A stretch of DNA of 64,000 bases from Dehalococcoidia bacterium (GTDB taxonomy: Bacteria; Chloroflexota; Dehalococcoidia; Lucifugimonadales; QGNO01), in NCBI GenBank assembly GCA_965261825.1, contig OZ253484.1, positions 532,695 to 596,694 on the forward strand. The letters are read 5' to 3'. Shown in pieces: positions 9,247 to 9,345 of the stretch; positions within the stretch are counted from its first letter, which is position 1; every line of letters starts with the position of its first letter. The notes below the pieces were generated by a model, which searched no databases, had not been told where the DNA came from, and saw nothing but the letters and a program-made list of their open reading frames with translations. Made by a program: the position numbers and the translations under genes.

Positions 9247-9345
9247 ATGGAAATTATCATTCTGGCACTGGTTATAGTGGTAATAGGAATGGTGGGGGCT
9301 GGCATTGGACTTGCTTTGTACGCTGCCACCTCCCGCCAGGAATAA
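9247..9345 (+). CDS. 32-aa single-TM microprotein resembling helix 1 of subunit c (not in ORF track)
   Basis: [41 protein letters not shown]; fills the atpB-atpE gap. Confidence 0.75.

Follow-up and report, generated by a model that had tools for sequence, protein, structure and literature searches.

Organization of the atp operon

A complete operon for an F-type ATP synthase lies on the + strand of the window, that is, the whole 64,000-nucleotide stretch of DNA that was analyzed, as read from its list of open reading frames (ORFs). The first gene of the operon (8028–8258, +) encodes a small AtpZ-like membrane protein of the ATPase_gene1 type (Pfam PF09527, E 3.6e-14), and the match of this product to NCBIfam TIGR02230 (E 7.6e-6) falls under the cut-off of that model. 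It is followed by atpB (8283–9224, +; stop codon TAG at 9222–9224), which encodes the 313-aa subunit a of Fo (Pfam PF00119, ATP-synt_A, E 2.3e-40). The long N-terminal part of subunit a (80 residues, 8283–8520) holds the first helix and a conserved proline-rich stretch that follows the consensus PFLPxPxVHLPPQ throughout the clade; among order-level relatives at greater distance, the match to subunit a splits in two around this N-terminal part. Downstream of atpB, a Shine–Dalgarno sequence, GAGGAG (9236–9241, +), can be read 5 nt before the ATG of a micro ORF (9247–9345 including its TAA stop at 9343–9345, +), the product of which is a predicted single-helix membrane microprotein of 32 aa. The original prediction had placed a 32-aa ORF between atpB and atpE at exactly this position, and the translation obtained here is the same. 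The stop codon of the micro ORF lies 35 nt from atpE (9381–9614, +), which begins with the ATG at 9381 behind a purine-rich ribosome-binding site, GAGGGGGA (9370–9377, +), and encodes the 77-aa subunit c of Fo (Pfam PF00137, ATP-synt_C, E 3.2e-18), whose helix 1 spans approximately residues 6–38. The next gene, atpF (9656–10162, +), encodes the 168-aa subunit b and takes its name from operon position and sequence rather than from a family-library scan. The remainder of the operon (10162–15203, +) consists of atpH, atpA, a 75-aa Sm-like ORF, atpG, atpD and atpC, with names taken from gene order and sequence.

The 75-aa ORF (12242–12469, +), located between atpA and atpG, is a second lineage-specific gene in the operon. 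It was found in 16 of 41 related genomes, including all 13 genomes of the family (that of the window among them), and where coordinates were compared, its position is immediately downstream of the atp genes. An AlphaFold2 model of its product consists of an N-terminal helix and a small five-stranded barrel (mean pLDDT 88). The best Foldseek match of this model is GerQ (E 5.5e-4), followed by Hfq/Sm-like proteins, and the only Pfam match is Spore_GerQ at E 0.03.

Evidence that the micro ORF is a gene

The micro ORF is a real gene under purifying selection for its amino-acid sequence. It is intact and in the same place in nine of the ten genomes of the genus, the genome of the window included; the tenth (G009, an 84%-complete bin) carries several indels and substitutions around the start of the ORF. 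Among the nine intact copies, 16 nucleotide sites vary, and these fall at the third (13 sites), first (3 sites) or second (none) codon position. Two of the three first-position changes are synonymous (Leu or Arg codons), and at the protein level the copies differ only by E2D, I20L and E32D. Pairwise comparisons give a dN of 0–0.06 vs. a dS of 0.04–0.47, and indels are present in the downstream spacer vs. none within the ORF. Synteny and dN/dS across the atpB–atpE gap had been proposed as a check on the ORF; the check returned a frame that is kept, a dN below dS and changes mostly at third positions. Absence or frame disruption in close relatives, which the original prediction named as grounds for doubt, is thus not the pattern within the genus. 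As judged from the letters of the locus, the micro ORF is a gene of the translated type with its own Shine–Dalgarno sequence and ATG. An antisense ORF of 95 aa (9078–9365, −) that covers the end of atpB and the whole micro ORF was also considered; it is most likely spurious because the variation tracks the + frame.

Contigs from an RNA library of a relative that is approximately 95% identical run unbroken from the 3′ end of atpB through the micro ORF and atpE to atpF. The micro ORF is intact in these contigs, seven of the eight listed differences are at third codon positions, and both indels lie 3′ of the stop codon. The contigs represent one metatranscriptome library (two runs of one study); DNA carry-over is possible in such libraries, and the level of expression is not readable from contigs. 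Two further RNA runs (X3 and X8) hold only other parts of the stretch and are uninformative on the micro ORF.

Distribution and history of the micro ORF

The bearers of the micro ORF are SAR202-type Dehalococcoidia, which are uncultured and have been recovered as metagenome bins. Beyond the genus, the ORF is present in all three other genomes of the family. At the level of the order, 16 loci had both neighboring genes, and of these, 8 carry an intact micro ORF, 1 a frameshifted copy and 7 none; this count leaves aside 11 further order-level genomes and 1 locus that ends before atpE. A scan of public genomes with subunit a as the query and one genome per species yielded 80 loci, and in a first pass, 58 of the 79 loci with both genes had a match to the micro ORF profile in the atpB–atpE gap. 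Pooling gave 108 usable loci, which were reduced to 95 distinct loci of uncultured Dehalococcoidia by removing identical a subunits. The micro ORF is intact in 63 of them, broken in 4 and absent from 28. The broken copies are that of G009, which is counted here as broken although its remnant has a low profile score, one frameshift and those of two related bins that lack a start codon and have P, E or K within the helix. Broken copies beside an intact atpB and atpE occur at L007/L033 (G009), L020/L075 (G030), L095 and L098; the last two have lesions in common, and assembly error is possible for low-quality bins.

The gene occupies the atpB–atpE gap in all 63 intact loci, over a divergence that reaches down to approximately 50% identity of subunit a, and the genome of the window yielded a single copy. 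It starts a median of 26 nt after atpB, with ATG (60 loci) or GTG (3 loci). A Shine–Dalgarno-like run of at least four bases precedes it in 54 of the 63 distinct intact orthologues, vs. 20% at random positions. Between its stop codon and atpE lie 28–200 nt across the orthologues, and the two genes never overlap.

When 1.84 billion representative proteins were searched with the family profile, 58 clusters matched at E ≤ 0.001. Their members are 31–33 aa long, or are the same peptides with a start called further upstream or an altered end. Exact micro ORF sequences are already present in public collections, where the name, if any, is "hypothetical protein." A 494-aa member of cluster 2, which reads like an enzyme such as threonine synthase, looks like an accident of clustering. 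One family member (P0029) is extended upstream to 55 aa and bears the source name "nitrate reductase NapE component"; this name is probably a mis-annotation, which could spread to other records, and the extension is non-coding spacer that was read through. In a profile search of 401 Dehalococcoidia genomes, eight matched at E ≤ 0.01, four with plausible short open frames (the genome of the window included) and four within frames of 207–376 aa that are probably chance matches. The first-look step of this search is weak for so short a peptide, and the search was not used to judge the range of the family.

In a quick maximum-likelihood phylogeny built from 95 rows of subunit a, intact copies occur throughout a clade of 90 rows (SH-aLRT 96), and the 5-row sister group is without the family. 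The states of the micro ORF require approximately 10 changes on this tree vs. 27 when the labels are shuffled, and one clade without the ORF comprises 16 loci. This pattern fits one gain followed by repeated loss or decay (approximately 8–10 times) in SAR202-type Dehalococcoidia, with the direction of change an inference because the root is only a midpoint. The microprotein is dispensable for the enzyme because whole lineages live without it.

It had also been claimed that standard bacterial operons have no gene at this place. This agrees with 40 regions upstream of atpE from other Dehalococcoidia orders and Chloroflexota classes, 38 of which contain both genes: the gap between the genes for a and c is mostly 12–100 nt, and a transmembrane-like ORF occurs in it in only 1 of the 38. 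Outside the main family, a one-helix ORF of another kind occupies this gap at two loci (L072:1209–1304, 31 aa, and L112:654–764, 36 aa), the 36-aa ORF being the one seen among the 38 regions. These two ORFs, the first of which belongs to a sister-group locus, resemble each other in having a mid-helix proline and an AAG..GVL core, end in RSQE and SRREQ, respectively, and are undetected by the profile of the micro ORF family; they may be a distant branch or second type of it, or an independent invention. A further locus without the micro ORF, L070, groups with L066 on the subunit a tree (92% identity of subunit a), and its subunit c is identical to that of L023 in the part compared. Recombination within the operon may have removed the micro ORF from L070.

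Shape of the peptide family

Of the 98 distinct sequences of the family, 35 are 31 aa long, 50 are 32 aa and 12 are 33 aa. They follow one pattern, in which M-(E/D) leads into a hydrophobic run of approximately 25 residues and (S/T/A)-(R/K)-(Q/N)-(D/E) closes the peptide. Conservation is highest at G14, A17, A18, L20, G21 and A25, and the residues at 14, 17, 18 and 21 are small in 88–100% of sequences. The middle of the helix is slim: the mean side-chain volume is 111 Å3 for residues 11–22, compared with 150 Å3 for residues 3–10, 143 Å3 for residues 23–27 and 151 Å3 for the helix of subunit b. Because the helical moment of conservation is only 0.10, the peptide has no single conserved face. 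Acidic residues are confined to position 2 and the C-terminal end. Given the positive-inside rule and a single basic residue near the C-terminus, the peptide is inferred to lie with its acidic N-terminus outside and its lone basic residue in the cytoplasm. In size (31–33 aa, under 50), in its one membrane helix (residues 3–27 hydrophobic), in being kept in the host operon across species and in its purifying selection, the family resembles the operon-encoded single-helix accessory proteins, a class defined by function and not by homology.

Searches with the family did not return a relative of known function. The product had no Pfam match at E up to 1 and only chance-level matches in NCBIfam. 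A profile search of the PDB gave PsbX at E 5.8 only. The ESM Atlas gave "hypothetical protein" clusters at 0.79–0.82 and an MgtS-like cluster at 0.77, all under a meaningful level.

Resemblance to subunit c

The original prediction described the product as a "half c-subunit," a peptide derived from AtpE. The motif match on which this description was built can be seen in the window, where GMVGAGIG of the peptide and GMLGPGIG of AtpE are identical at six of eight positions, but the match is not beyond chance (tblastn E 0.095 in a tiny database). The GxGxGxG look is moreover confined to the genus. The counterparts of the motif in relatives from the family and order read AMVGTLIG, GIAGVALG and AIAAAALG, the consensus being G(I/L)(A/S)AAALGG, and the packing motif of c helix 1 is therefore missing at the level of the peptide family. 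Neither did the comparison of profiles recover a relationship: hhalign of the peptide family against subunit c gave a probability of 0.1% (E 0.61), and Pfam ATP-synt_C (PF00137) was without a match to the peptide at E up to 1. The terminal RQE, which had been taken as an echo of the c-subunit loop, is the family-wide (R/K)(Q/N)(D/E) end of a membrane helix and not an RNPE loop. The peptide has one helix and an end without proline, and accordingly lacks the hairpin, the carboxylate of helix 2 and the R(N/Q)P loop that characterize subunit c.

Suggested link to helix 1 of subunit c

Subunits of the enzyme were compared between each lineage with a lost or broken micro ORF and its nearest intact sisters. 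Columns were counted in which the sisters have the majority residue of the bearers and the loser differs, and the null was drawn from intact–intact pairs matched on subunit a identity only (1000 sets, or 300 or 400 for a and b). The test is exploratory and comprises eight events, with L070 and L023, which have an identical subunit c, merged as one event. Helix 1 of subunit c shows 30 changes on loss vs. a null mean of 12.4, a count reached by 0 of 1000 null sets. No excess was seen in c helix 2 (13 vs. 12.9), in any of six segments of subunit a (residues 291–313, beside the gap, 11 vs. 10.3) or in the N-terminal membrane helix of subunit b (P 0.87 each for subunit a and for the b helix). The excess changes in c helix 1 are spread over all helical faces in a helical-face test, with no single stripe, and the highest count for any one column (4 in the eight events) is not exceptional (P 0.071).

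The single site that covaries best with the micro ORF is c-A32. It is alanine in 57 of 59 distinct bearers. Of the 24 non-bearers in the set of fetched relatives, 12 have alanine and the rest S, M or Y. Among more distant non-bearers, only 4 of 38 have alanine, the others having F, Y, W, M, K, S, G, N or L; F, Y, W, M and K are frequent in the other Dehalococcoidia orders, and S and G lead in the other classes. The site c-L9 did not separate bearers from distant non-bearers. In an alignment with the solved c15 and c14 rings, residue 27 of the subunit c in the window falls on the site Gln, which belongs to the ion site that lies between the helices. Position 32 is five residues further on and approximately 140° round the helix and, by geometry alone, should therefore point roughly away from the ion site and toward the lumen.

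These comparisons suggest that the peptide is functionally linked to c helix 1. A mirror-tree analysis of 56 bearers with subunit a controlled for gave no extra co-variation between the peptide and helix 1 of subunit c (partial r 0.03, P 0.3). The guess of subunit c as the partner keeps its footing in the excess of change on loss, which is found in c helix 1 only, and the proposed origin of the peptide from subunit c does not.

A possible accessory protein of the c-ring

The view of the micro ORF as a candidate undescribed Fo component, put forward with the original prediction, stands because the ORF is a selected gene, is unnamed in the collections and sits inside the block of Fo genes. For the product, we favor an accessory microprotein of Fo that would act on the inside or on the assembly of the c-ring through helix 1, a reading to which we give about an even chance. 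A hydrophobic helix of 31–33 residues would insert in the membrane with its acidic N-terminus outside and would serve Fo as a small accessory protein, with the inner helix 1 of subunit c as its partner. Helix 1 is buried in the assembled ring and, therefore, could be contacted only from the central lumen or before and during assembly. For this reason the reading takes two forms, an occupant of the lumen and a helper of ring assembly. The mechanism preferred here is that the slim-waisted helix would fill the hourglass-shaped interior of the c-ring or act as a template for it; at c32, non-bearers have varied residues, often bulkier ones in the other Dehalococcoidia orders. The lumen occupant is slightly favored over the assembly helper by the slim waist, by the all-round conservation and by the small c32 residue of the bearers. 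Spelled out in full, this would be a 32-residue helix that stays in the lumen and turns with the ring, its Gly/Ala waist fitting the hourglass constriction, with losers refilling the cytoplasmic mouth by means of a larger c32; in that detail, the proposal is tentative and rather improbable. A complex prediction with alignments for subunit a, two copies each of b (residues 1–60) and c and the peptide gave an ipSAE of 0.00 in both runs, which were made without controls and are given no weight here.

If a helix does lie in the lumen, no protein before it would have been seen to occupy the c-ring of a bacterial F-type enzyme, and it would offer a new handle on ring size and sealing. More generally, a peptide in the ring or in the building of the ring would bear on how the lumen is filled and sealed, on ring stoichiometry and on the tuning of bioenergetic machines by lineage-specific microproteins.

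Alternative explanations

The main rival is a peripheral stabilizer of the stator, in which the helix would pack at the Fo rim, on subunit a, on subunit b or on the two together, in the manner of KdpF or CydX and with no special relation to the interior of the c-ring. Operon-encoded peptides of this size usually act so, according to the available part of a recent review (PMC12648545), and the gene for the peptide directly follows atpB. Pairwise distances of the peptide also follow those of subunit a best (r 0.79 vs. 0.61 and 0.59 for the two c helices), although this correlation is mostly shared phylogeny because subunit a has the most columns. With subunit a controlled for, the N-terminus of subunit b retains a partial r of 0.07 (P 0.048); hhalign of the peptide family against that N-terminus was null. 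With subunit a, hhalign weakly aligned 28 columns of the family to its first membrane helix (E 0.0097), with a probability of 4% that is far under significance. In lineages without the micro ORF, neither subunit a nor the b helix bears a trace of the loss, whereas c helix 1 changes, and a rim-bound helix would be expected to have the single conserved face that the family lacks. A stabilizer at the rim is possible but has a clearly smaller chance than an action on the c-ring.

An unlikely alternative is a membrane protein that rides in the operon with a job unrelated to ATP synthase, for instance, as a general membrane or stress peptide. This would suit a family without a family or structure match that carries a function, and the many losses of the micro ORF from operons that are kept. 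Conversely, it would not explain the changes in c helix 1 on loss, and such a passenger is hard to reconcile with a gene that keeps its place between atpB and atpE in every intact locus over deep divergence and as a single copy in its own genome. Should the peptide nevertheless be unrelated to Fo, it would still be a clear case of a gene of 32 codons that is under selection and is named, where it is named, only as a hypothetical protein.

The micro ORF is also short and directly precedes atpE, the Fo gene in greatest demand, and translation of a regulatory upstream ORF could tune atpE through mRNA structure or coupling for a high c:a ratio. A purely regulatory ORF is very unlikely because selection acts on the protein along the whole ORF, with length and residue types kept over order-level divergence, and because the spacing to atpE is variable and never overlapping. 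Furthermore, a separate ribosome site serves atpE in the window, and a scan of 9100–9500 against Rfam gave no match at E up to 1. Least probable of all, to the point of being nearly dismissed, is a remnant or derivative of a duplicated atpE: the six identities in the motif and the terminal RQE speak for it, but the motif belongs to one genus and the cores of the relatives are Ala-rich, the profile and Pfam comparisons are null, and a neutrally decaying duplicate is contradicted by the purifying selection, under which the ORF is not decaying.

Comparison with known systems

The Fo of bacteria consists of a, b2 and cn. To our knowledge, no protein occupant of the lumen of a bacterial F-type c-ring is known, and none was found in literature searches on this point. 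Searches of the literature on SAR202 and other Dehalococcoidia, on the c-ring lumen and on assembly factors did not find a one-helix gene between those for a and c, supplementary operon tables aside. No extra small subunit was found in the accessible part of the paper on the Chloroflexus F1Fo structure. A survey of operons from 2014, as far as its available text goes, marks hypothetical intervening ORFs with an "X" (PMC4154653). In its available sections on ATP synthase, the review mentioned above deals with AtpE itself and the soluble inhibitor AtpTheta and with no one-helix subunit of this kind (PMC12648545).

Membrane helices inside a c-ring and tiny one-helix neighbors of subunit a are found outside the bacterial F-type enzymes. 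The yeast protein Voa1 and the mammalian proteins ATP6AP1/2 place membrane helices inside V-ATPase c-rings, and mitochondrial ATP8/A6L is a tiny one-helix protein that lies beside subunit a and is encoded next to it. Unlike the micropeptide, these proteins are eukaryotic V-type or mitochondrial, and they have no sequence relation to it.

Within bacterial operons, AtpI/UncI and AtpZ resemble the micro ORF product in being non-core membrane proteins from the Fo part of the operon, and a role in ring assembly, proposed for AtpI/UncI, is one of the two forms of the reading favored here. UncI, for instance, is a proposed assembly factor of the c-ring in the available text of one report (PMC9806626). 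AtpI/UncI and AtpZ are longer than the micro ORF product, have several helices and are encoded upstream of atpB, unlike the micro ORF. The product does not belong to either family (PF03899 and PF09527), as it is without a Pfam or NCBIfam match, and the operon has its own PF09527 member in a separate gene, the one at 8028–8258. N-ATPase operons contain two extra small membrane protein genes, atpQ and atpR, described as of unclear function in the part of the source available (10.64898/2026.10.01.756066). They are likewise additional small membrane protein genes inside an F-type operon, but the operon type and the gene order differ, and the micro ORF product has no Pfam family. AtpQ and AtpR are also longer proteins, encoded at a different position in the operon. 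In the part of that source available, these N-ATPase genes are the only small ones mentioned.

The closest parallel is with operon-encoded single-helix accessory subunits such as KdpF (29 aa) of KdpFABC and CydX/CioY (34–37 aa) of cytochrome bd, as described in the available part of the same review (PMC12648545). The micro ORF product is like them in size, in its one helix, in the location of its gene in the operon, in a family signal that is weak or lacking and in being often dispensable or lineage-restricted. It is unlike them in that no homology is seen, the host is an F-type ATP synthase, and the comparative signal leads to the rotor ring and not to a static rim. The micro ORF would thus encode a one-helix accessory protein of this operon-encoded kind in a bacterial F-type Fo, possibly on its rotor.
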